Shown here: positions 1-56,031 of the stretch, one piece after another
Layout of the letters: every line of letters begins with the position of its first letter
Numbering within the stretch: position 1 is the stretch's first letter
Virus record (IMG/VR): IMGVR_UViG_3300031998_000070
Span: 3,713-67,712 of that record
Strand: one strand, 5' to 3'
Length of the DNA stretch: 64,000 bases
Source: a virus
Taxonomy: Duplodnaviria; Caudoviricetes
Translations under genes and position numbers: made by a program
The notes under the pieces: generated by a model
The model's database searches: none
What the model was told of the DNA's origin: nothing
The model's input: only the letters and a program-made list of their open reading frames with translations

Positions 1-1
1 G

Positions 2-799
2 GCAAAACTCAAGTCAATGGACAGTGAATATAAGATTTTCATCATTGACGAATGTCATGCTATTAGTAATACAGGATGGCAGGCATTTCTAAAACTAATT
101 GAAGAGCCTCCGGCAAAGAGCCTATTTATATTTTGTACTACAGACCCACAAAAGATACCAAAGACAATACTTAGTAGAGTACAGAGATACGACTTTAAAC
201 GTATATCTCAATTTGGTATAGTTCAGAGATTAAAGTGGATATGTGATAACGAAGGTATTGCTCGATATTCAGATAATGGAAAGTTGCCTGATAGCAATTA
301 TGCTACTCAGAGCGCATTACACTATATAGCAAAGATAGCAGACGGAGGGATGAGGGACGCCATAACTATGATGGACAAGTGCTTATCCTATAGTAATCAG
401 TTAACACTTGAAAACGTAGTGAAAGCACTAGGTACTGTTGATTATGATATCATGATGAAACTAACAGATGCGGTATTACATTATAATAGCGAGGAAGTTC
501 TTAAAATTATTGATGGTATACACGCAGAAGGAAAAGACATCAAACAGTTCCTGGCACTATATGTGCAATTCCTATTAGATATACAGAAGTTTAAATTAAC
601 AAAGGACTTCAAATATACACAGTTACCCGGTACAGATAGCAATAAAGAATGGCTGAATGACATTGATAACACAGAGTCCTATGATACTTGTTTTGAATTA
701 CTTAGGATTTTGGTTAAACTCAATGCTTCAATAAAATGGTCGCAGACTGCAAAGTATGATTTGGAAGCAGAACTGTTATTGTTTACCATGGAGGAATGA
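2..799 (+). CDS. dnaX: DNA polymerase III gamma/tau-like clamp-loader ATPase (5'-truncated by the window edge)
   Basis: YKIFIIDECHAIS (Walker B), AFLKLIEEPP, FIFCTTDPQKIPKTILSRVQRYDF (SRC-like motif) and ADGGMRDAITMMD. The frame is open from position 2. Confidence 0.9.
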   Translation, partial: AKLKSMDSEYKIFIIDECHAISNTGWQAFLKLIEEPPAKSLFIFCTTDPQKIPKTILSRVQRYDFKRISQFGIVQRLKWICDNEGIARYSDNGKLPDSNYATQSALHYIAKIADGGMRDAITMMDKCLSYSNQLTLENVVKALGTVDYDIMMKLTDAVLHYNSEEVLKIIDGIHAEGKDIKQFLALYVQFLLDIQKFKLTKDFKYTQLPGTDSNKEWLNDIDNTESYDTCFELLRILVKLNASIKWSQTAKYDLEAELLLFTMEE

Positions 800-800
800 T

Positions 801-938
801 ATGGAGATAGCAATAATAATATTAGCATTTGGTGAATTGTATTTGCTATACAGATACCAGAGATTGGAAAATTTATTTATAAAATTAATGCGAGAGTTAA
901 CAACAATATTAAAACAGATGGAGGAAGAGAGCAAATGA
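801..938 (+). CDS. small membrane protein
   Basis: GGAGG RBS then ATG at 801; hydrophobic N-terminus MEIAIIILAFGELYLL. Confidence 0.55.
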   Translation: MEIAIIILAFGELYLLYRYQRLENLFIKLMRELTTILKQMEEESK

Positions 939-1171
939 TTATTGTAAGAGAAGCAGAAAAGTATACCAAAGCACTTAAAGATCTTAAACCCGGTGAGACA
1001 TTTGAGGTTAGAACACAGCCTGATATTGTGTATATGAAACTCAAAGAGGAAGAGATATCGGCAAACGTTAAGGTGTTGGATTTCTTTAACAGCAAGATTG
1101 TGGAGTTACCAGAAGAGACACCGGTACGTAGAGTAGACGCAGTATTAACAATATCAGCATCACCATATTAA
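935..1171 (+). CDS. hypothetical protein
   Basis: 78-aa ORF with ATGA overlap and an RBS. Confidence 0.65.
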   Translation: MIIVREAEKYTKALKDLKPGETFEVRTQPDIVYMKLKEEEISANVKVLDFFNSKIVELPEETPVRRVDAVLTISASPY

Positions 1172-1184
1172 GGAGGTACTATAT

Positions 1185-1298
1185 ATGAATGCTTTATTAT
1201 CAATATTATCAAAAATTAGCCCTTTTGAGGTAGGTGGTCTCGTATTTATAATAATTTGTGTTACAGCAGCAGTGCTTAGTATAGGGGAGGACGATTAA
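1185..1298 (+). CDS. small membrane peptide (37 aa; not in ORF track)
   Basis: AAGGAGG RBS; MNALLSILSKISPFEVGGLVFIIICVTAAVLSIGEDD*. Confidence 0.55.
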   Translation: MNALLSILSKISPFEVGGLVFIIICVTAAVLSIGEDD

Positions 1299-1484
1299 AT
1301 GAAAGATACACATCCAAGCAATGGGTTAGGATTCTGTGGAATGTTAACACTATTATTCATAGCATTAAAACTTTTAAGAATTATAGATTGGAGCTGGAAA
1401 TGGGTATTGGCTCCATTATGGATGCCAATTCTAATCGCAATTATACTCATATGCGTTATGACAATACTTGCAAGCAAAGGTTGA
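1299..1484 (+). CDS. small two-TM membrane protein
   Basis: GLGFCGMLTLLFIALKLLRIIDWSWKWVLAPLW, two hydrophobic segments. Confidence 0.7.
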   Translation: MKDTHPSNGLGFCGMLTLLFIALKLLRIIDWSWKWVLAPLWMPILIAIILICVMTILASKG

Positions 1485-1495
1485 AAGGATAAATA

Positions 1496-2344
1496 ATGAT
1501 AGGACAGAAATATATTAGAAGTTTTATATACGAGATGGCGAATAAGCATTGTGTTCCCAGGTTTTTATTACTTGTTGGTGATAGTGGAAGTGGTAGAAAA
1601 ACATTGGCACAAGATGTAGCACGCTACATGAATGAACGTGAGAAAGCAGAATCTGGGAACACGTGCAATTCCTATATGCTACCGGACGTTAAGATAGAGA
1701 CTATAAGAACTATGCTAGATAATTCTTACAAACAAAAAACACCGATGGTATATATAGTTCCAGATATTGATAATATGTCTCAGGCGGCACAGAATGCCAT
1801 ACTAAAGGTAACAGAAGAGCCACCAAATAAAGCATATTTCATAATGACAGCTATAGATGTAGATAGCATACTACCTACTATTAAGAGTAGGGCTTTTACA
1901 TTGTGGATGGATAAATATTCAATGGAAGAAATAGAAGAATATGCACTAGGATTAGGTTTAGATCCCGATGATGTTGAAGCGGCAACTACATTATGCGAGA
2001 CACCTGGAGAAGTAAATACCTTCAAATCCAATAATGGCTGTGAATTGGTGAACTTCGCATATAAGGTGGTAAATAATATAACTACAGTATCCACAGCAAA
2101 TGCTTTGAAGATACTAAACGAGCTAGATATTAAGGAGGAAGGCAAAGGCTATGATGTATGTCTATTTCTTAAGTTGTTCATAAAAGGATGCGTAAAAAAT
2201 GCTATACATGAGACAGACAAATCACTTGCAATAGATTATATATTTATGGTTTCACCTACCGGCAAAGCACTTGCCAATATGAAGGTAAAAGGTGCAAATA
2301 AAAATATGATACTTACGAATTGGATATTTGATATAAGGAGTTAA
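1496..2344 (+). CDS. holB: DNA polymerase III delta-prime-like clamp-loader subunit
   Basis: P-loop-like LLVGDSGSGRKTLA, DVKIETIR, MSQAAQNAILKVTEEPP and ILPTIKSR, the pattern of the HolB/DnaX family. Confidence 0.8.
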   Translation: MIGQKYIRSFIYEMANKHCVPRFLLLVGDSGSGRKTLAQDVARYMNEREKAESGNTCNSYMLPDVKIETIRTMLDNSYKQKTPMVYIVPDIDNMSQAAQNAILKVTEEPPNKAYFIMTAIDVDSILPTIKSRAFTLWMDKYSMEEIEEYALGLGLDPDDVEAATTLCETPGEVNTFKSNNGCELVNFAYKVVNNITTVSTANALKILNELDIKEEGKGYDVCLFLKLFIKGCVKNAIHETDKSLAIDYIFMVSPTGKALANMKVKGANKNMILTNWIFDIRS

Positions 2345-2345
2345 C

Positions 2346-3299
2346 ATGGAACAGGCAACGCTGAAGCAACTTATACAGAAGAACGAGGTGCCTAACTTCT
2401 TAGCATTCACTGGTGAGGAATGGGCAGCACAAAAGATATATATAGATCAAATAGTAAAGCGATATAAGCTGGAAAAAAGATATATAGATACAGTGTATGA
2501 AGTTCTACCTAAATTAGGCAATAAGAAGTTCATAACATCTCATAACTATTTGTATCTGGTACGAGACGACAATAAGATACTAACAGATTTTAAATGCCTA
2601 GATAAGTTACAGCAGTTACTCGGCAATAATATATTGATTTTGCTTATTACCAAACTGGATAAGCGTACTAAATTTGCTTCTACATATAAAGACAGCATAA
2701 TAGAATTTAATCCCTTAAATCCCGTAGATTTAAAGAAATATATAAAGAAGGAAATAACACTAAGTGATAATAATTGTGACAAGTTGATAGAAGTATGTGA
2801 AGGCAATTATGGACGCATATTGTTAGAGATAGATAAGATAAAGCATTATGATGCAGGCGTATCCAAAACCCATGAAGAAGCCGAGTTGTGGGATTTAGAT
2901 TTTAAATCATTGCTGGCAGATGGAACTATATATACTCCACCAAAAGATGCCATATTTGATTTGGTAGATGCAATACTAGATAGAAAGACAAAACTCACAT
3001 TCGATTTATTAGAGCAATGTAAAGCAATAAATGAATCAAGCTTTGCTATATTAACTGTGCTATTTAATAATGCCAAAGCAATCTTACAGGTGCAGACGTG
3101 TAAAAATACTAATATAACTAAGTCTACTGGGTTAACTGGATGGCAGATAATGAATGCTAAGAAGCATCTGAATACATATACAAACACAGAATTGCAAAAT
3201 ATGTTAAAATTATTAAGTAACGTCGTACACGGCGTGAAGATAGGAACTATAGAAGAGAGGTATGTATTGGATTATGTGTTAGCGAGGATACTAGGATGA
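2346..3299 (+). CDS. holA: DNA polymerase III delta-like clamp-loader subunit
   Basis: NFLAFTGEEW, LIEVCEGNYGRILLEIDKI and DAIFDLVDAIL match HolA architecture; 317 aa; directly follows the holB-like gene. Confidence 0.7.
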   Translation: MEQATLKQLIQKNEVPNFLAFTGEEWAAQKIYIDQIVKRYKLEKRYIDTVYEVLPKLGNKKFITSHNYLYLVRDDNKILTDFKCLDKLQQLLGNNILILLITKLDKRTKFASTYKDSIIEFNPLNPVDLKKYIKKEITLSDNNCDKLIEVCEGNYGRILLEIDKIKHYDAGVSKTHEEAELWDLDFKSLLADGTIYTPPKDAIFDLVDAILDRKTKLTFDLLEQCKAINESSFAILTVLFNNAKAILQVQTCKNTNITKSTGLTGWQIMNAKKHLNTYTNTELQNMLKLLSNVVHGVKIGTIEERYVLDYVLARILG

Positions 3300-18523: not shown

Positions 18524-18650
18524 GGTATATTAGCAGTTAATGCTTTTATATAAAGCCCAGCGTAAAGGCATATAAAGAACGCACATTGAGTGGACACTGT
18601 AAACCACATTTAAACAAAACAGATTTAAACAATGTAGGAGGATTTGTACT

Positions 18651-19340
18651 ATGAAAATTGAAGACATCTTTAAGGAAGCTGAAGGACCTTTAACACTTGA
18701 GCAGTTTAATGAAATTGTTTCAAGTAAAGGCGCAAAATTTGCAGACCTGAGTGAAGGAAATTATCTAAGTGTTGGAAAGCATGAAGGACTAATGGAATCA
18801 CTTGAGAAGCAGATTGAAACACTTACCGAGGCAGTTGCACAGAGAGAAGCCGATGTCAATGAATTGACACAGAGACTTCAGGAAGCTGGTAACGATGCAG
18901 AAGCATTGGCAAATGTATCTGAGCAACTTGCAGCATTGCAGGAAAGATACAACGAAGATGCAGAAGCGTATGAGGAACAGCTTTCAAGACAGGCTAGGGA
19001 GTTCGCGGTTAAAGAGTACGCAGCAACCAAGGAATTTACCAGTGAAGCAGCAAAGCAGTTTTATATTGAAAAGCTGATAGATTCAGAGGATGTTGACTTT
19101 AATAGAAAAGGCGAGCTTGAAGGTATGGAGGATTTCGATTCCAGGTTTGCTGAGTCTTATAAGAATACTTTTTATGAGAAAGCACCAGAGGTAGAACCAC
19201 CAGTTGCACCGGAGCCTGAAGCACCAAAGCCGAAATTTAGTAACCCAACACCAGGGGCAACAAACCCCGCACCAAAAATGTCTTTATCAGAAATGATGCA
19301 GGCAAAAAACGAAAACCCAGATATGTCAGTAGGTTTTTAA
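18651..19340 (+). CDS. capsid scaffolding protein (GP20-like)
   Basis: Acidic coiled coil, FADLSEGNYLS, Pro-rich C-terminus; directly before the capsid gene. Confidence 0.8.
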   Translation: MKIEDIFKEAEGPLTLEQFNEIVSSKGAKFADLSEGNYLSVGKHEGLMESLEKQIETLTEAVAQREADVNELTQRLQEAGNDAEALANVSEQLAALQERYNEDAEAYEEQLSRQAREFAVKEYAATKEFTSEAAKQFYIEKLIDSEDVDFNRKGELEGMEDFDSRFAESYKNTFYEKAPEVEPPVAPEPEAPKPKFSNPTPGATNPAPKMSLSEMMQAKNENPDMSVGF

Positions 19341-42364: not shown

Positions 42365-43678
42365 ATGATAGAGGTTGCAGCATTACAAATATTAAGCAAG
42401 GTATTGCTAACTAAGAATATATCTATAATCGAAGATAACTTTTTAACAGAAGAATATTTTCCAGAATACTTAGACGAATACAACTACATAATGGAGCATT
42501 ATAGAAAATATGGAAACGTACCAGACAAAGCAACATTCCTTTCTAACTTCCCAGATGTGGAACTTGTGGAAGTTACTGAGAGTGACGAATATTTGGTAGA
42601 TACCATATGCGAGGAATGGACATTTAATAAATCAGTTCCTGTACTTAAGAATGCGGCGAAGATGATGAAGACAGATGCAAATGAAGCTGTAAGGTATATG
42701 CTTCAAGCAGTTAAAGATCTTCAGCCTAAGCAAAGTATTTCAGCGGTGGACATTGTATCTCAGGCAATGCAAAGATATAACGACTATATAGAGAGACGAG
42801 ACCATAAAGACGAATGGACATTTACTACCGGATTCCCAGAGTTAGATGATTTAATACATGGCATAGAAAGAGTAGAAGAGTTGATAGTGGTGTTCGCACG
42901 TATTAACAACGGTAAATCATTTGTAGCAGAGAAAATATGTACTCATGTGTGGCAATTAGGATTCAATATCGGATACATAAGCCCAGAGATGAGTCCTAAT
43001 AGTATTGGATACAGATTTGATACGCTGTACAAAGGATTTTCAAATAAGGGTCTTATGTGGGCAAACAATACAGTAGATGCAGAGCAGTATAGAGAATATA
43101 TTGAAGAACTTAGTTCCCGCAAGAATAAATTCAAAGTGGCTACACCATTAGATTTTGATAAGAAAATAACAGTAGGCAAATTAAAACAGTGGGTAGAACA
43201 AAATAACTTGCATATGCTGGCAATAGATGGTATAACATATCTAACAGATGAGAGAGGCAAAAGAGGTGATACTAAGACAGCAACCCTAACGAACATATCT
43301 GAAGATTTGATGAGCTTATCCATAGAGCTAAAAATACCGATTCTTGTAGTTGTTCAGGCAAACAGGAGCGGAGTAGTACAAGATACACAAGAGGAAGACG
43401 GAGGAACACCGGATCTTGAGAATATTAAGGACAGTGACGGAATAGCAGCAAATGCCAGCAAAGTATTGTCTTTAAGGCACACAAAGGAAGGTGTATTAAA
43501 GATTGGAATTAAGAAGCAGAGGTTTGGTCCTGTGGGAGGACATATCAATTATCAATGGAACCCAGATATAGGAGAGTTTAAATTCATAAGAACAGATGAT
43601 GACATCGTACAGGAAGAACCCACAGAGAAACGTCAGAGAAAAAGACCTAAGATGGAGACCGACGAAGATATGTTTTGA
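42365..43678 (+). CDS. dnaB: DnaB-like replicative helicase
   Basis: TTGFPELD, ARINNGKS, YISPEM, IDGI and VVVQANR. Confidence 0.85.
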   Translation: MIEVAALQILSKVLLTKNISIIEDNFLTEEYFPEYLDEYNYIMEHYRKYGNVPDKATFLSNFPDVELVEVTESDEYLVDTICEEWTFNKSVPVLKNAAKMMKTDANEAVRYMLQAVKDLQPKQSISAVDIVSQAMQRYNDYIERRDHKDEWTFTTGFPELDDLIHGIERVEELIVVFARINNGKSFVAEKICTHVWQLGFNIGYISPEMSPNSIGYRFDTLYKGFSNKGLMWANNTVDAEQYREYIEELSSRKNKFKVATPLDFDKKITVGKLKQWVEQNNLHMLAIDGITYLTDERGKRGDTKTATLTNISEDLMSLSIELKIPILVVVQANRSGVVQDTQEEDGGTPDLENIKDSDGIAANASKVLSLRHTKEGVLKIGIKKQRFGPVGGHINYQWNPDIGEFKFIRTDDDIVQEEPTEKRQRKRPKMETDEDMF

Positions 43679-43769: not shown

Positions 43770-44741
43770 ATGGAGATAGATGAATTTTTATTTAATGCAG
43801 AACTTGAAGATATAATAGAAGAACTTAGGCGCCAGCTTCATAATAATGGAATCAATTTATTGCAGAAGCCACCTAAGAAGAGTGGACTAGGTAGCAAAGA
43901 GAGTTTGCAGATACAGTGTCCATATCATGGGGATGGGCAAGAGCGGAAACCTTCAGCAGGTATTAGGAAGTCAGATGGATTGTTTCATTGTTTTGCGTGT
44001 GGGCAAGTTCATACATTGCCGGAAGTAATTTCATTTTGCTTTGGACACGAAGAGGATATAATAGGCAGCTGGGGTTGGAAATGGTTGGTAAGAAATTTTG
44101 CAACAGTTAGATTGGGGGAACGTAAAGATGTCGATTTGGATTTGGATAGGACTTATAATCGTAGAGATACTCGTAATTTTGTTTCTGCCGAGGAATTAGA
44201 CAGCTACAGATATTATCATCCGTATTGGAAGAAAAGAGGTATAACAAATGAAGATATCATTGAATTATTCGATCTGGGATATGATAAAAAGACCCATTGT
44301 ATTACATTCCCAATCAGAGATAAAGATGGCAATTGCCTGTTCGTCGCTCGCAGGTCTGTACGCACGAAATACTTCAATTACCCAGCAGGAGCAGAGAAGC
44401 CACTTTATGGATTGTATGAGATATATCAACTGGAACAATTTCCCAAGGAAATAATAATATGCGAATCTATGATAGATGCACTTACTTGCTGGCAATTTGG
44501 TAGAGTAGCAGTGGCATTAAATGGGTTGGGTAATGCCCTACAATTTGAACAGCTACGAAAGCTACCAGTAAGAAAGTACATATTAGCAACAGATAATGAC
44601 GAAGCAGGGCTCAGGGCACGGGATACGTTAAAAAAGAACTTACCTAACAAAATAATTACAGAATTCGTATTTCCAGAGGGCAAAAAGGACATAAATGACT
44701 TGAATTTACTGGAGTTTAGAGATTTAGCCGAAATATTCTAA
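43770..44741 (+). CDS. dnaG: DNA primase (CHC2 zinc finger plus TOPRIM)
   Basis: CPYHGDGQERKPS...FHCFACG, ICESMIDA and ATDNDEAG. Confidence 0.9.
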   Translation: MEIDEFLFNAELEDIIEELRRQLHNNGINLLQKPPKKSGLGSKESLQIQCPYHGDGQERKPSAGIRKSDGLFHCFACGQVHTLPEVISFCFGHEEDIIGSWGWKWLVRNFATVRLGERKDVDLDLDRTYNRRDTRNFVSAEELDSYRYYHPYWKKRGITNEDIIELFDLGYDKKTHCITFPIRDKDGNCLFVARRSVRTKYFNYPAGAEKPLYGLYEIYQLEQFPKEIIICESMIDALTCWQFGRVAVALNGLGNALQFEQLRKLPVRKYILATDNDEAGLRARDTLKKNLPNKIITEFVFPEGKKDINDLNLLEFRDLAEIF

Positions 44742-44849: not shown

Positions 44850-45620
44850 ATGAGAAGAATCCAGAACAAACAGAATGGACGCATTGCGCAAATCACCGAT
44901 ACCTACGAGAAGGGCGGACAGATTATCAATTACGAGCTTACTTATGAGGATGACGGAACAGTTACCAATCTTTCAACTAGCACTGTAAAGAGATGGTGGA
45001 AGGATATTGAAGAAGTTGATACTTCTAAGCAGGAAGCCGACAAGTACGTAGAAGCATCTAAGAAGATTACCAAGGAACTTAATAAGAACAACTCAAAGTC
45101 GTTGCAGGAAATGGTAGACGCACAGGCAGAACCCACAACGTCTTTCAAAGACATGGTGGAAGAAATGGTTGCAGAAGCAAAGCAGGAGATGGAGAAAGCT
45201 CCTAAGCAGAAGAAGGAAAAGAAGGAGAAGAAAGCTCCTAAGACAAAAGCACCTAAGAGACCCACATTTGATTCAACAGACCTACAGAATTATGCAATAC
45301 AGGTTGTAGCAGATCTTGGTGGAGACTATGTACAGAGAAGGCAGAACAACGGTGCTAAGGATATGGCGCAAAAGGTTTTTAGGGCAGGCGGAAAAATGTT
45401 CATGCACATGAGTTACCCTAAGCACGAATTGCGTTTAGACACACGAGGGGTTGATGTAGAAACGTTGGTTCCACAGCAGACACTGACAGGTTTCTATTCA
45501 GCAAGATATACATTTAATGAGGACACTCAGCAAGTTCGCAGCACAATTAAGAAGATACTAACTCAGGCATATAATGCACAGTTAGCAAAGAATAATAAGA
45601 AAGGAAAAGGTGACAAATAA
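44850..45620 (+). CDS. hypothetical protein with a K/E-rich linker
   Basis: 256 aa, AAGGAGG RBS. Confidence 0.7.
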   Translation: MRRIQNKQNGRIAQITDTYEKGGQIINYELTYEDDGTVTNLSTSTVKRWWKDIEEVDTSKQEADKYVEASKKITKELNKNNSKSLQEMVDAQAEPTTSFKDMVEEMVAEAKQEMEKAPKQKKEKKEKKAPKTKAPKRPTFDSTDLQNYAIQVVADLGGDYVQRRQNNGAKDMAQKVFRAGGKMFMHMSYPKHELRLDTRGVDVETLVPQQTLTGFYSARYTFNEDTQQVRSTIKKILTQAYNAQLAKNNKKGKGDK

Positions 45621-46417
45621 TGGGTAGAGTAAATCTAAACGACTTGGACAAGTACAATAGTGGTGGAGGAAATAAAATCAGTTATTTCCGACTTCAGGAT
45701 GATGGAGATGTTGAGAGAGTTAGGATTCTAATAGCTGATGAAGATGACTTGAACAATTACATTTATAACACTCATAAGGTTAAGGTAGGAGAAAATGCTA
45801 AATATCCTAATAGACATATTAATTGCCTAAGAGCTTACAATGACCCGATAACAGATTGTCCATTGTGCGAAAGTAAAGCAAGTGTAAGCGTAAGAGTATT
45901 TATTCCTGTGTACAATATAAATGCTGAAGAGATACAGTTTTTTGAAAGACCTAAGGCATATATTGGTAAGCTTCAGAAGTTACTTAGAAGATATGATAAC
46001 TTCCCTTCACACATTTTTGAAATTGAAAGAAATGGTGCGAAGGGAGACCAGCAGACAACTTATGATATTATTGAAGTAGATGAGGATGATACAACACTTG
46101 AAGATTTGCCAGAAGTACCGGATATCCTTGGATCTGTTGTATACGATGCTACCATAGATGATATGGAATATTATTTGGATACTGGAGAACTTCCTCCAAG
46201 CGGTGGCAATAATGATGACGATGACGAGGAGGAACCTGTAAGAAGACGCACAAGCAAAAAGTCCAAGAGACAGGAAGATGACGAACCTCCGTTTGATGAG
46301 GATGAAGAAGAAAGACCTCGTGCACGTAGACGCAATAAGGAGACACGTAGAGGTGGAAGATCTGTACACGCAGAAGAGAAACGAAGCAGACGTAGAAGTG
46401 ATGAAGATGAGTTTTAA
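45620..46417 (+). CDS. single-stranded DNA-binding protein (gp32-like)
   Basis: YFRLQDDG, CPLC, FEIERNGAKGDQQTTY; long charged tail ending DEDEF. Confidence 0.75.
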   Translation: MGRVNLNDLDKYNSGGGNKISYFRLQDDGDVERVRILIADEDDLNNYIYNTHKVKVGENAKYPNRHINCLRAYNDPITDCPLCESKASVSVRVFIPVYNINAEEIQFFERPKAYIGKLQKLLRRYDNFPSHIFEIERNGAKGDQQTTYDIIEVDEDDTTLEDLPEVPDILGSVVYDATIDDMEYYLDTGELPPSGGNNDDDDEEEPVRRRTSKKSKRQEDDEPPFDEDEEERPRARRRNKETRRGGRSVHAEEKRSRRRSDEDEF

Positions 46418-54879: not shown

Positions 54880-56031
54880 ATGGCGGCAAAAAAGGTAACT
54901 AAGAAAGAATCAGCAGGAACAAAAATCTCATTAAATACTATATTATTCAAAGATATGGTAGCAAGAGCAAGAAAAGGGGCATCAAACAATTCAATTCTAC
55001 CACTTACTTCTATGATGGCTATAGAGCTGAAGGATAATACATTAACATTGACAACTACAGATATGACGAATTTCTTGTATGTTATACAGAACGACGTAAA
55101 AGGAAATGACTTTTATGCAACAGTTATGTCAGAAGTATTTTGCCAGTTAGTAGCAAAGACAACTAGCGACAATATAACATTGGAGCTGAAGGACAACTAT
55201 TTACAGTTTACCGGAAATGGAACATATAATATTGATTTGCCGGTAGAAGAAGGAGAAGTAATTAAGTTCCCAGACCCGAGAAATGATTCTACACTAGAAC
55301 AGCTCGATAATATACAGCTTAGCTCTATAACTAATATTGTTAATTCAGCAAAAGCATCTTTAGCATTAACAATGGAAGAGCCATGTCTTACAGGTTATTA
55401 TTGCGGAGGCAACTATACAATAGCTTCTGATACATATAAGCTTTGTAAGGTGGATGAAGCTTTGTGGGAGACCCCTAGACTTATACCTGCGGAGTTAATG
55501 GACTTGCTTACACTTATTACAGACAACGACATACAGGTATATGCTAATGAAGATACTTTATTGTTTACCTCTTCAAATTGCCAGGTATATGGAAAGGTTA
55601 TGGATTGCATTGATGATTATCCGGCAAAGGATATAAAAGATTTTATTGATTGTGATTTCAGATGCAGCTGTACCGTGGATAAAGCAACTCTACTTCAGCT
55701 ATTAGACAGACTTTCATTATTTGTTGCTAAAGGTGATAAGAATGAAATCAATTTATCCTTTACAGAAGATGGACTTGAAGTTTCATCAAAAGCAAGCACA
55801 GGTGTAGAGCTTGTAAAATATATAGCAAGCGACAAAGATATAGAGACATTCGCATGCGTAGCAGATATTGAAATGCTAAATAACCAGCTTAAATCTATTG
55901 CATCAGATAATGTAGAGATTCAATATCATAATGTATTACAGACACCCGATGGATCTATTGAAGATAACGCTTTAAAGTTTGTAGAAGATGGAGCAACAGT
56001 TTGCATTTCACTTATGGAGAATGAACAATGA
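54880..56031 (+). CDS. dnaN: DNA polymerase III beta-clamp-like sliding clamp
   Basis: 383 aa; NSILPLTSMMAIELKDNTLTLTTTD, FPD, ASDTYKL, DYP and ATLLQLLDRLSL follow the three-domain DnaN pattern. Confidence 0.75.
   Translation: MAAKKVTKKESAGTKISLNTILFKDMVARARKGASNNSILPLTSMMAIELKDNTLTLTTTDMTNFLYVIQNDVKGNDFYATVMSEVFCQLVAKTTSDNITLELKDNYLQFTGNGTYNIDLPVEEGEVIKFPDPRNDSTLEQLDNIQLSSITNIVNSAKASLALTMEEPCLTGYYCGGNYTIASDTYKLCKVDEALWETPRLIPAELMDLLTLITDNDIQVYANEDTLLFTSSNCQVYGKVMDCIDDYPAKDIKDFIDCDFRCSCTVDKATLLQLLDRLSLFVAKGDKNEINLSFTEDGLEVSSKASTGVELVKYIASDKDIETFACVADIEMLNNQLKSIASDNVEIQYHNVLQTPDGSIEDNALKFVEDGATVCISLMENEQ

Follow-up and report, generated by a model that had tools for sequence, protein, structure and literature searches.

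A family A DNA polymerase encoded with a bacterial-type beta clamp and clamp loader in a Dp-1-like phage, and a candidate clamp-binding peptide at the polymerase N-terminus

Background

Streptococcus phage Dp-1 (HQ268735/NC_015274), which has a genome of 56.5 kb and infects pneumococci, and its relative MS1 possess genes for a beta sliding clamp (DnaN) and a clamp loader, together with a DNA polymerase I. In both phages, 7-deazaguanine genes, DnaN, a Cas4/RecB-like nuclease, RecU and RecA are followed by DnaX, a second AAA+ subunit (delta-prime), HolA and packaging genes; DnaC, DnaB, DnaG and SSB are also present. The deazaguanine genes of Dp-1 lie directly upstream of dnaN. The Dp-1 genome is said to have been described by Sabri et al. 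in 2011. Here we describe the same gene set in a stretch of 64,000 nucleotides, referred to as the window, which covers bases 3713-67712 of one virus record of 67,712 bp in all (IMGVR_UViG_3300031998_000070), and we discuss the N-terminus of its family A DNA polymerase (PolA) as a possible hook for the phage clamp.

The Clostridium phages phiCTP1 and vB_CtyS-FA88 (FA88) and the Bacillus phage Flasso, the latter with a genome of 108 kb, also carry PolA, an annotated Pol III beta subunit, three annotated loader genes and the same neighbouring genes. Their PolAs are the closest cultured ones, with 41-47% identity to the PolA described here. A tblastn search of cultured phages with the clamp and with delta matched the same five phages, Dp-1, MS1, phiCTP1, FA88 and Flasso, whose records annotate DnaN, DnaX, a second gamma/tau-like subunit, HolA and DNA polymerase I.

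Kazlauskas and Venclovas (2011) found that Ma-LMM01 and RSL1 combine PolA with homologues of beta and gamma; they proposed that beta serves PolA and cited the stimulation of E. coli Pol I by beta (PMC3201878). Phages of 40-140 kb typically lack clamps (PMC3201878); the Dp-1 lineage is an exception to this rule, but one that was already annotated. Ma-LMM01 and RSL1 share with the phage described here the idea of a family A polymerase on a bacterial-type clamp that is loaded by a phage gamma homologue. They differ in having genomes above 150 kb and a single loader subunit, whereas the lineage described here has genomes of 56-75 kb, a clamp and all three types of loader subunit. A preliminary description of the window had inferred a hybrid replisome from this gene set. 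The gene set is neither new nor unusual for phages: it has been annotated in Dp-1-like phages since 2010-2011, and the pairing of PolA with beta had been put forward in print (PMC3201878).

The gamma complex and the beta clamp of E. coli and B. subtilis resemble the phage proteins in the AAA+ motifs, the delta fold, the three-domain clamp fold and the acidic clamp surface, and probably in a delta-prime that is inactive but retains its SRC arginine. In contrast to these bacteria, the phage lacks the tau domains, the Pol III core and chi/psi. As for T7 gp5 with thioredoxin, its family A polymerase would depend, as a replicase, on an added processivity device; unlike in T7 gp5, the candidate docking peptide is N-terminal.

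Gene content of the phage record

The completeness of the record was estimated as 100% by CheckV. Sequence outside the window amounts to only 3.7 kb, upstream (fetched as L001), and contains small open reading frames (ORFs) and the 5′ start of a dnaX-like gene. Nearly all long ORFs of the window are on the + strand. The source is a Dp-1-like tailed phage with the standard replication module of its lineage, and its host is probably a rumen or gut Firmicute.

The replication module encodes an O/DnaD-like initiator, a DnaC-like loader, DnaB helicase, DnaG primase, SSB and PolA with a proofreading exonuclease. The clamp loader that it encodes is minimal and of bacterial type, and the beta clamp is acidic and diverged. 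The syntenic set of Dp-1-like phages is complete in the window (initiator, DnaC, DnaB, DnaG, SSB, PolA, deazaguanine genes, then DnaN, Cas4-like nuclease, resolvase, RecA, DnaX, delta-prime and delta), in the same order as in Dp-1, phiCTP1 and Flasso. Named PHROGs families exist for DnaX, delta-prime, delta and the clamp alike. Compared with Dp-1, the protein identities are 24-40%, and the phage is uncultured, has 67.7 kb and has metagenomic relatives. The dnaX-, holB-, holA- and DnaN-like genes were found on the + strand where the preliminary description had placed them (Table 1), with dnaX cut by the window edge.

Table 1. Features of the clamp, clamp loader and polA genes in the window
Feature	Position in window	Strand	Evidence or remark
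dnaX-like gene, 3′ part	1..799	+	TIGR02397; Pfam delta2, ATPase lid, gamma3
Insert of about 700 bp with three small ORFs (60, 78 and 61 amino acids)	756..1484	+	Between dnaX and delta-prime; outside the loader
Delta-prime-like subunit, 282 amino acids	1496..2344	+	holB models; Pfam delta2
Delta (HolA-like) clamp-opening subunit, 317 amino acids	2346..3299	+	TIGR01128; Pfam; structure model
M-A-L-F-E-M-P, the very start of PolA and a candidate clamp-binding peptide	46544..46564	+	Conservation in relatives
PolA N piece: N-terminal peptide, basic linker, 3′-5′ exonuclease, first part of polymerase domain	46544..48070	+	Pfam DNA_pol_A_exo1, DNA_pol_A
GIY-YIG homing-endonuclease gene splitting polA	48073..48768	+	Pfam GIY-YIG, 1.4e-10
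PolA C piece (motif A to C-terminus)	48765..49743	+	Pfam DNA_pol_A on 48847-49743, 2.4e-47
Beta sliding clamp, 383 amino acids, isoelectric point 4.3	54880..56031	+	Pfam N and C domains; structure model

Search for DNA polymerases other than PolA

Pol III alpha, PHP and PolB had no match when the whole record was searched with profiles in six frames, and the controls matched in reference genomes. PolA is the only polymerase family found, as the preliminary description had reported for the window, and its caveat that a dnaE or polC might lie outside the window is answered, as far as these profiles reach, by the search of the complete record. The search was extended to 22 long related virus records, twenty of them at least 90% complete and eleven with terminal repeats. 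PolA was present in 22 of 22 records and Pol III alpha in none by profile search. Family profiles for PHP and PolB found no match in the 22 records, Dp-1, phiCTP1 or Flasso, and the profile search likewise detected no Pol III alpha in these three phages. Delta was found in 20 of the 22 records, and DnaX with delta-prime also in 20 of 22; the two records without a loader are linear, with an estimated completeness of 79% and 90%. The lineage has a clamp and a loader, and PolA is the sole DNA polymerase family found by these family profiles.

The stretch 46544-49743, previously read as one polA gene, is not a single open frame and contains 38 stops. An N piece is followed by a free-standing GIY-YIG endonuclease gene and then by a C piece with a frame break. 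PolA starts at the ATG at 46544, with AGGAGG 8 nt upstream. The C piece opens at the ATG at 48765 (MKKSIRIKTQYVLMSSDYS) and meets a TGA at 48822, after ...SSDYS; three-frame translation shows that motif A resumes as QQEPKV... 7 nt past the break in another frame. Rfam could not detect a group I intron at the polA split with either the gathering or a relaxed threshold. The PolA of most relatives is a single frame of 756-796 amino acids, and 5 of 22 are also split. The PolA of Dp-1 is unsplit.

Clamp loader

The full dnaX-like gene corresponds to L001:3453-4511 and encodes 352 amino acids. Its ATG is 260 nt upstream of the window, which holds only the last 265 codons (2-799). DnaX scored 306.8 bits against the NCBIfam model TIGR02397 dnaX_nterm (cut-off 250), and Pfam identified the delta2, ATPase lid and gamma3 (collar domain III) domains. 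The protein possesses a Walker A motif (GAGTGKTT), a Walker B motif (DECH) and an arginine-finger SRV (SRVQRY); GKTT, DE[CV]H and SR[VC]QR are kept in 19 of 19 DnaX sequences (this one and 18 relatives). By eye, the Cys4 zinc module appears to be absent. Tau domains IV-V are also absent; DnaX ends right after domain III, and the relatives have 334-372 amino acids. DnaX is gamma-like and not tau, judged from its sequence, because the protein stops after domain III without a tau extension. In bacteria, this extension couples the loader to Pol III and DnaB.

The best NCBIfam matches of delta-prime are all holB, below the cut-off (80.5 against 180.6 bits), and its match to Pfam delta2 has an E-value of 8.9e-21. 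Its P-loop is degenerate and variable among relatives, with GSGRKT in this phage. Instead of DExx, it has DIDN (a D-x-D-x-M pattern in relatives), and the SR[AG] arginine finger is retained (18 relatives). Delta-prime is probably an inactive ATPase.

Delta scored 85.4 bits against TIGR01128 holA (cut-off 80) and matched Pfam DNA_pol3_delta_C with 2.8e-12. The best Foldseek matches of its model (predicted local distance difference test, pLDDT, 88) were B. subtilis delta 3zh9 (3.8e-14) and then E. coli delta. Relatives of delta show, by eye, S-[FL]-[VIL] after basic or polar residues at the position that we take to correspond to E. coli AMSLF. Profiles and/or folds support DnaX, delta and the clamp in the roles first assigned to them, and for delta-prime holB is the best match, below the cut-off.

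The dnaX and delta-prime genes of the 18 relatives mostly overlap or lie within about 10 nt of each other, with one spacing of up to about 225 nt. In the phage described here an insert separates them, and two of its three small ORFs match PHROGs, both families of unknown function. In the relative IMGVR_UViG_3300021400_000864, which has terminal repeats, the loader operon spans the record ends (delta 73331-74248, delta-prime 482-706 and dnaX 1622-2032). This is in agreement with the location of dnaX near the start of the present record.

Beta clamp

The Pfam N and C domains of beta were both detected in the clamp above their gathering scores. The structure model (pLDDT 86.5, predicted template modelling score 0.81) aligned by Foldseek over its full length (about 390 columns) with the clamps of B. 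subtilis, S. pneumoniae and E. coli, with template modelling scores of 0.75-0.80 (0.77-0.80 for B. subtilis and S. pneumoniae). The protein at 54880, which had been called DnaN-like from its translation, is thus predicted to fold as a clamp. Its identity to bacterial clamps is about 16%, so that it is highly diverged, and it stayed below the cut-off of the TIGR00663 equivalog (50.6 bits against 137.65). Judging from its sequence, the clamp belongs to a diverged family of phage proteins (PHROG 947) and was not copied recently from a host dnaN. There are 461 homologues at E < 1e-5, many of them on contigs of 58-70 kb. A single-protein scan of viral contigs with the clamp gave no match, and an alignment-based scan yielded 74 viral loci. 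The segment A-S-D-T-Y-K-L would correspond to ATDGHRL of E. coli, whose beta was absent from the sequence matches. The isoelectric points of the relatives are 4.2-5.0, and the acidic isoelectric point fits ring clamps that need a loader (criterion in PMC3201878).

These data bear on the polymerase that the clamp and loader would serve. Since both are of the bacterial Pol III type, and PolA is interrupted in this genome, they might serve a host PolC or DnaE that copies the phage genome, with PolA filling gaps or maturing Okazaki fragments; a beta homologue without any polymerase is known in some phages (PMC4889955). We consider this quite unlikely. DnaX has gamma length in all relatives, without the tau domains to which Pol III alpha and DnaB bind, and the clamp shares little identity with those of Firmicutes (about 16%). 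PolA is kept in all 22 relatives with a conserved terminal LF peptide of its own, and it has no 5′ nuclease domain for Okazaki maturation.

N-terminal Leu-Phe peptide of PolA

All PolAs encoded near a clamp gene in the fetched loci share an N-terminal peptide (about 60 loci, 44 distinct N-termini), with the pattern M-[APGS]-(0-3 residues)-L-[FLI]-x-[VIL]-P. Between this peptide and the exonuclease domain lies a Lys/Ser-rich basic linker of about 40 residues, whose sequence varies freely. Clamp-binding motifs are of the type QL[SD]LF, with the final L-F as the anchor, and may sit on a disordered N-terminus, as in Hda (PMC11139829). Loss of the Gln is tolerated with a cost in affinity, for instance in delta AMSLF (PMC11139829). 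The canonical pentapeptide form is present as QKGLF in Dp-1, whose PolA has the clamp-motif-like start MAQKGLFG, and in MS1, and as QNSLF in Flasso; phiCTP1 and FA88 start with MALFNF. The peptide of this phage differs from that of Dp-1 in being trimmed to (M)ALF without the Gln.

The peptide is absent in six relatives without a clamp, phi8074-B1, FA70, 268TH002, LP-KV022, cd4 and PSYJ-YH, whose PolA N-termini are unrelated. The clamp profile, which recovered the clamps of Dp-1, phiCTP1 and Flasso, had no match in these six. The loader ATPase (PF13177) was not found in FA70, 268TH002, LP-KV022, cd4 and PSYJ-YH, and none is annotated in the stretch of phi8074-B1 that was examined. Phi8074-B1 keeps the order SSB, PolA, Cas4-like nuclease and resolvase, without the clamp gene. 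The PolAs of the clamp-less 268TH002 (L084) and FA70 (L083) start with MEGLRLNLN... or MKLNLTN..., loosely like Q-L-x-L-x-L; as pure speculation, these starts might dock on a host clamp.

No Q-type clamp motif was found in the PolA thumb, and the sole internal match is SPTQLAVLF, which resembles a helix that occurs in Pol I-type polymerases in general. Complex prediction of the clamp with PolA residues 1-40 scored 0.40 against 0.27 for the control, which is non-specific and speaks neither for nor against binding.

With its conservation, its terminal position and its co-occurrence with the clamp, the N-terminal peptide is a plausible candidate for a clamp-binding motif, as far as sequence can tell, although it lacks the Gln. 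A conserved N-terminal Leu-Phe peptide of PolA that may act as a clamp hook is what is new here. The earlier proposal that PolA runs on its own beta clamp stands in its genomic part, with a conserved gene set, no family C or B polymerase and an N-terminal LF peptide, whereas the binding of PolA to the clamp is a prediction.

Proposed role of the clamp in replication

Our favoured explanation, held with moderate confidence, is that the clamp would give PolA its processivity, with the phage clamp set on DNA by the phage loader and PolA docked on it by the N-terminal Leu-Phe peptide. In the loader, DnaX of gamma length would be the active ATPase, delta-prime would be inactive with its arginine finger retained, and delta would act as the 'wrench'. 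By analogy the loader would be a DnaX3-delta-delta′ complex, which would open the phage clamp and set it on primed templates. PolA would dock on the clamp through its extreme N-terminal peptide, (M)ALFxVP, which looks like a trimmed form of the QxxLF of Dp-1 and Flasso and would be tethered by the flexible basic linker (about 40 residues) that precedes the exonuclease domain. The docked clamp would make PolA processive.

Several observations weigh against this explanation. The Gln, the main contributor to affinity in bacterial motifs (PMC11139829), is missing from the peptide of this phage. The co-occurrence of peptide and clamp represents one or two evolutionary events and not many, because the clamp-encoding PolAs and phi8074-B1 share one clade. 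In the quick tree this clade was strongly supported, its base was without resolution, and the other five clamp-less lineages fell outside it. PolA is split by the endonuclease gene and by a stop and frame break in motif A, so that PolA would have to be made as two or three polypeptides or by reading through the frame break. Moreover, no bench test of this PolA/clamp pairing turned up in the papers that were searched.

The replisome had also been described as host-independent, which does not hold. It is not self-sufficient because searches of the whole record for a 5′-3′ exonuclease/FEN domain (PF02739) and for an ATP-dependent ligase domain (PF01068) found neither, with NAD-dependent ligase outside the search, and because PolA lacks a 5′ nuclease domain and has only the 3′-5′ exonuclease. 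Primer removal and ligation would probably be left to host enzymes.

Terminal tails of other replication proteins

The genes for DnaB, SSB and DnaG are among those at 42365-43678, 43770-44741 and 45620-46417. DnaB ends with E-D-M-F (mostly E-D-V-F in relatives), SSB with D-E-D-E-F (D-R-F in relatives) and DnaG with A-E-I-F (E-[IV]-F in relatives).

The PolA peptide might dock on another part of the replisome, for example DnaB helicase or SSB, instead of the clamp. The conserved Phe that ends the DnaB, SSB and DnaG tails (E-D-V-F, D-R-F and E-[IV]-F) would agree with this, as terminal peptides would then wire the replisome as they do in T7. However, these tails lie at the C-terminus and are acidic, as in T7 gp4/gp2.5, and would bind a basic patch. 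The PolA peptide is instead hydrophobic, precedes a basic linker and takes the QxxLF form in Dp-1 and Flasso. It is also missing where DnaB and SSB stay but the clamp is lacking, as in phi8074-B1. We therefore regard docking on DnaB or SSB as very unlikely.

DpdA and other possible clients of the clamp

A 7-deazaguanine DNA-modification operon (49757-54867) is located between polA and the clamp gene, likewise in Flasso. Its members are DpdA-like, QueC-like, a pyridoxal phosphate (PLP) enzyme, HAD, a deaminase, QueD, QueE and FolE. The DpdA-like enzyme (49757-50656, tail at 50636-50653) ends with RKRRLF, and 29 of 29 orthologues, with 26 distinct tails, end with basic-x-L-F. The LF end of DpdA is also present in Dp-1, Flasso, Rhizobium phage RHEph04, Acinetobacter phage HD01, E. 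coli phage CAjan and Pseudomonas phage Iggy, and Edwardsiella phage ZHS has LW. None of ten other module proteins with at least nine orthologues has an LF end.

It is also conceivable that PolA is processive alone and that the clamp serves chiefly as a moving platform for other enzymes of the phage, with DpdA, the neighbouring Cas4-like nuclease, the resolvase, RecA or late-transcription factors (similar to T4 gp45) as candidate clients. In favour of this, the clamp gene is flanked by the 7-deazaguanine operon on one side and by the genes for the Cas4-like nuclease, resolvase and RecA on the other; this placement is also given for Dp-1, phiCTP1 and Flasso, although phiCTP1 has no deazaguanine operon between polA and the clamp gene. 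The LF end kept in all 29 relatives of DpdA is consistent with such a platform, and late transcription is reportedly activated by clamps in T4 and Mu (PMC2988020, PMC12867686). Nonetheless, the LF end of DpdA is also found in the distant phages CAjan, HD01 and RHEph04, in which no clamp was detected or annotated; in this check the Pfam beta models also missed the annotated beta subunit of Iggy, so that the positive control failed. No LF end is seen in any Cas4-like, resolvase or RecA orthologue, and the conserved N-terminus of PolA would be left unexplained. We consider a clamp that serves mainly as a platform unlikely; it would, moreover, be compatible with a clamp that serves PolA ('tool belt') and not exclusive of it.

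The LF end of DpdA was dropped as independent evidence for clamp docking, as it also occurs in distant phages and is non-discriminating. It may be a general clamp-docking end or part of the DpdA fold.

Pseudomonas phage Iggy (MN029011, L113 8095-12981) carries dpdA, two genes further on an annotated 'DNA polymerase III beta subunit', and then the polymerase, which starts with MRSDALGLFW followed by a basic Pro/Lys linker. The beta annotation was not confirmed by profiles. Iggy was dropped as an independent lineage, since Pfam was blank for both proteins and hhalign to the clamp profile was null. The termini of Ma-LMM01 were not used as evidence, with only a weak RLF near the end of gp180. In the head-gene region of the window, the Rfam motif GP20-a RNA (RF02991) was detected at 18551-18644, just upstream of the gene at 18651, with 50.3 bits (gathering score 47.2).

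Implications

As a genomic observation, the presence of these genes together is ordinary. If the pairing of PolA with the clamp works as proposed, it would represent a compact replisome of phages of 56-75 kb with cultured members such as Dp-1 and phiCTP1, in which replication by a Pol I-type enzyme would run on a clamp of the bacterial type. It would show how a phage keeps its clamp and the clients of the clamp apart from those of the host, and it would make the relocation of clamp-binding peptides between the N-terminus, the thumb tip and the C-terminus of polymerases addressable. We also put forward, tentatively and at somewhat less than even chances for both parts taken jointly, a third route to processivity, in which an N-terminal Leu-Phe peptide on a basic tether docks PolA on a host-orthogonal phage clamp, and the same clamp may carry DpdA via its C-terminal basic-LF end. 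If the clamp carries DpdA, the insertion of 7-deazaguanine would be physically coupled to the replication fork.

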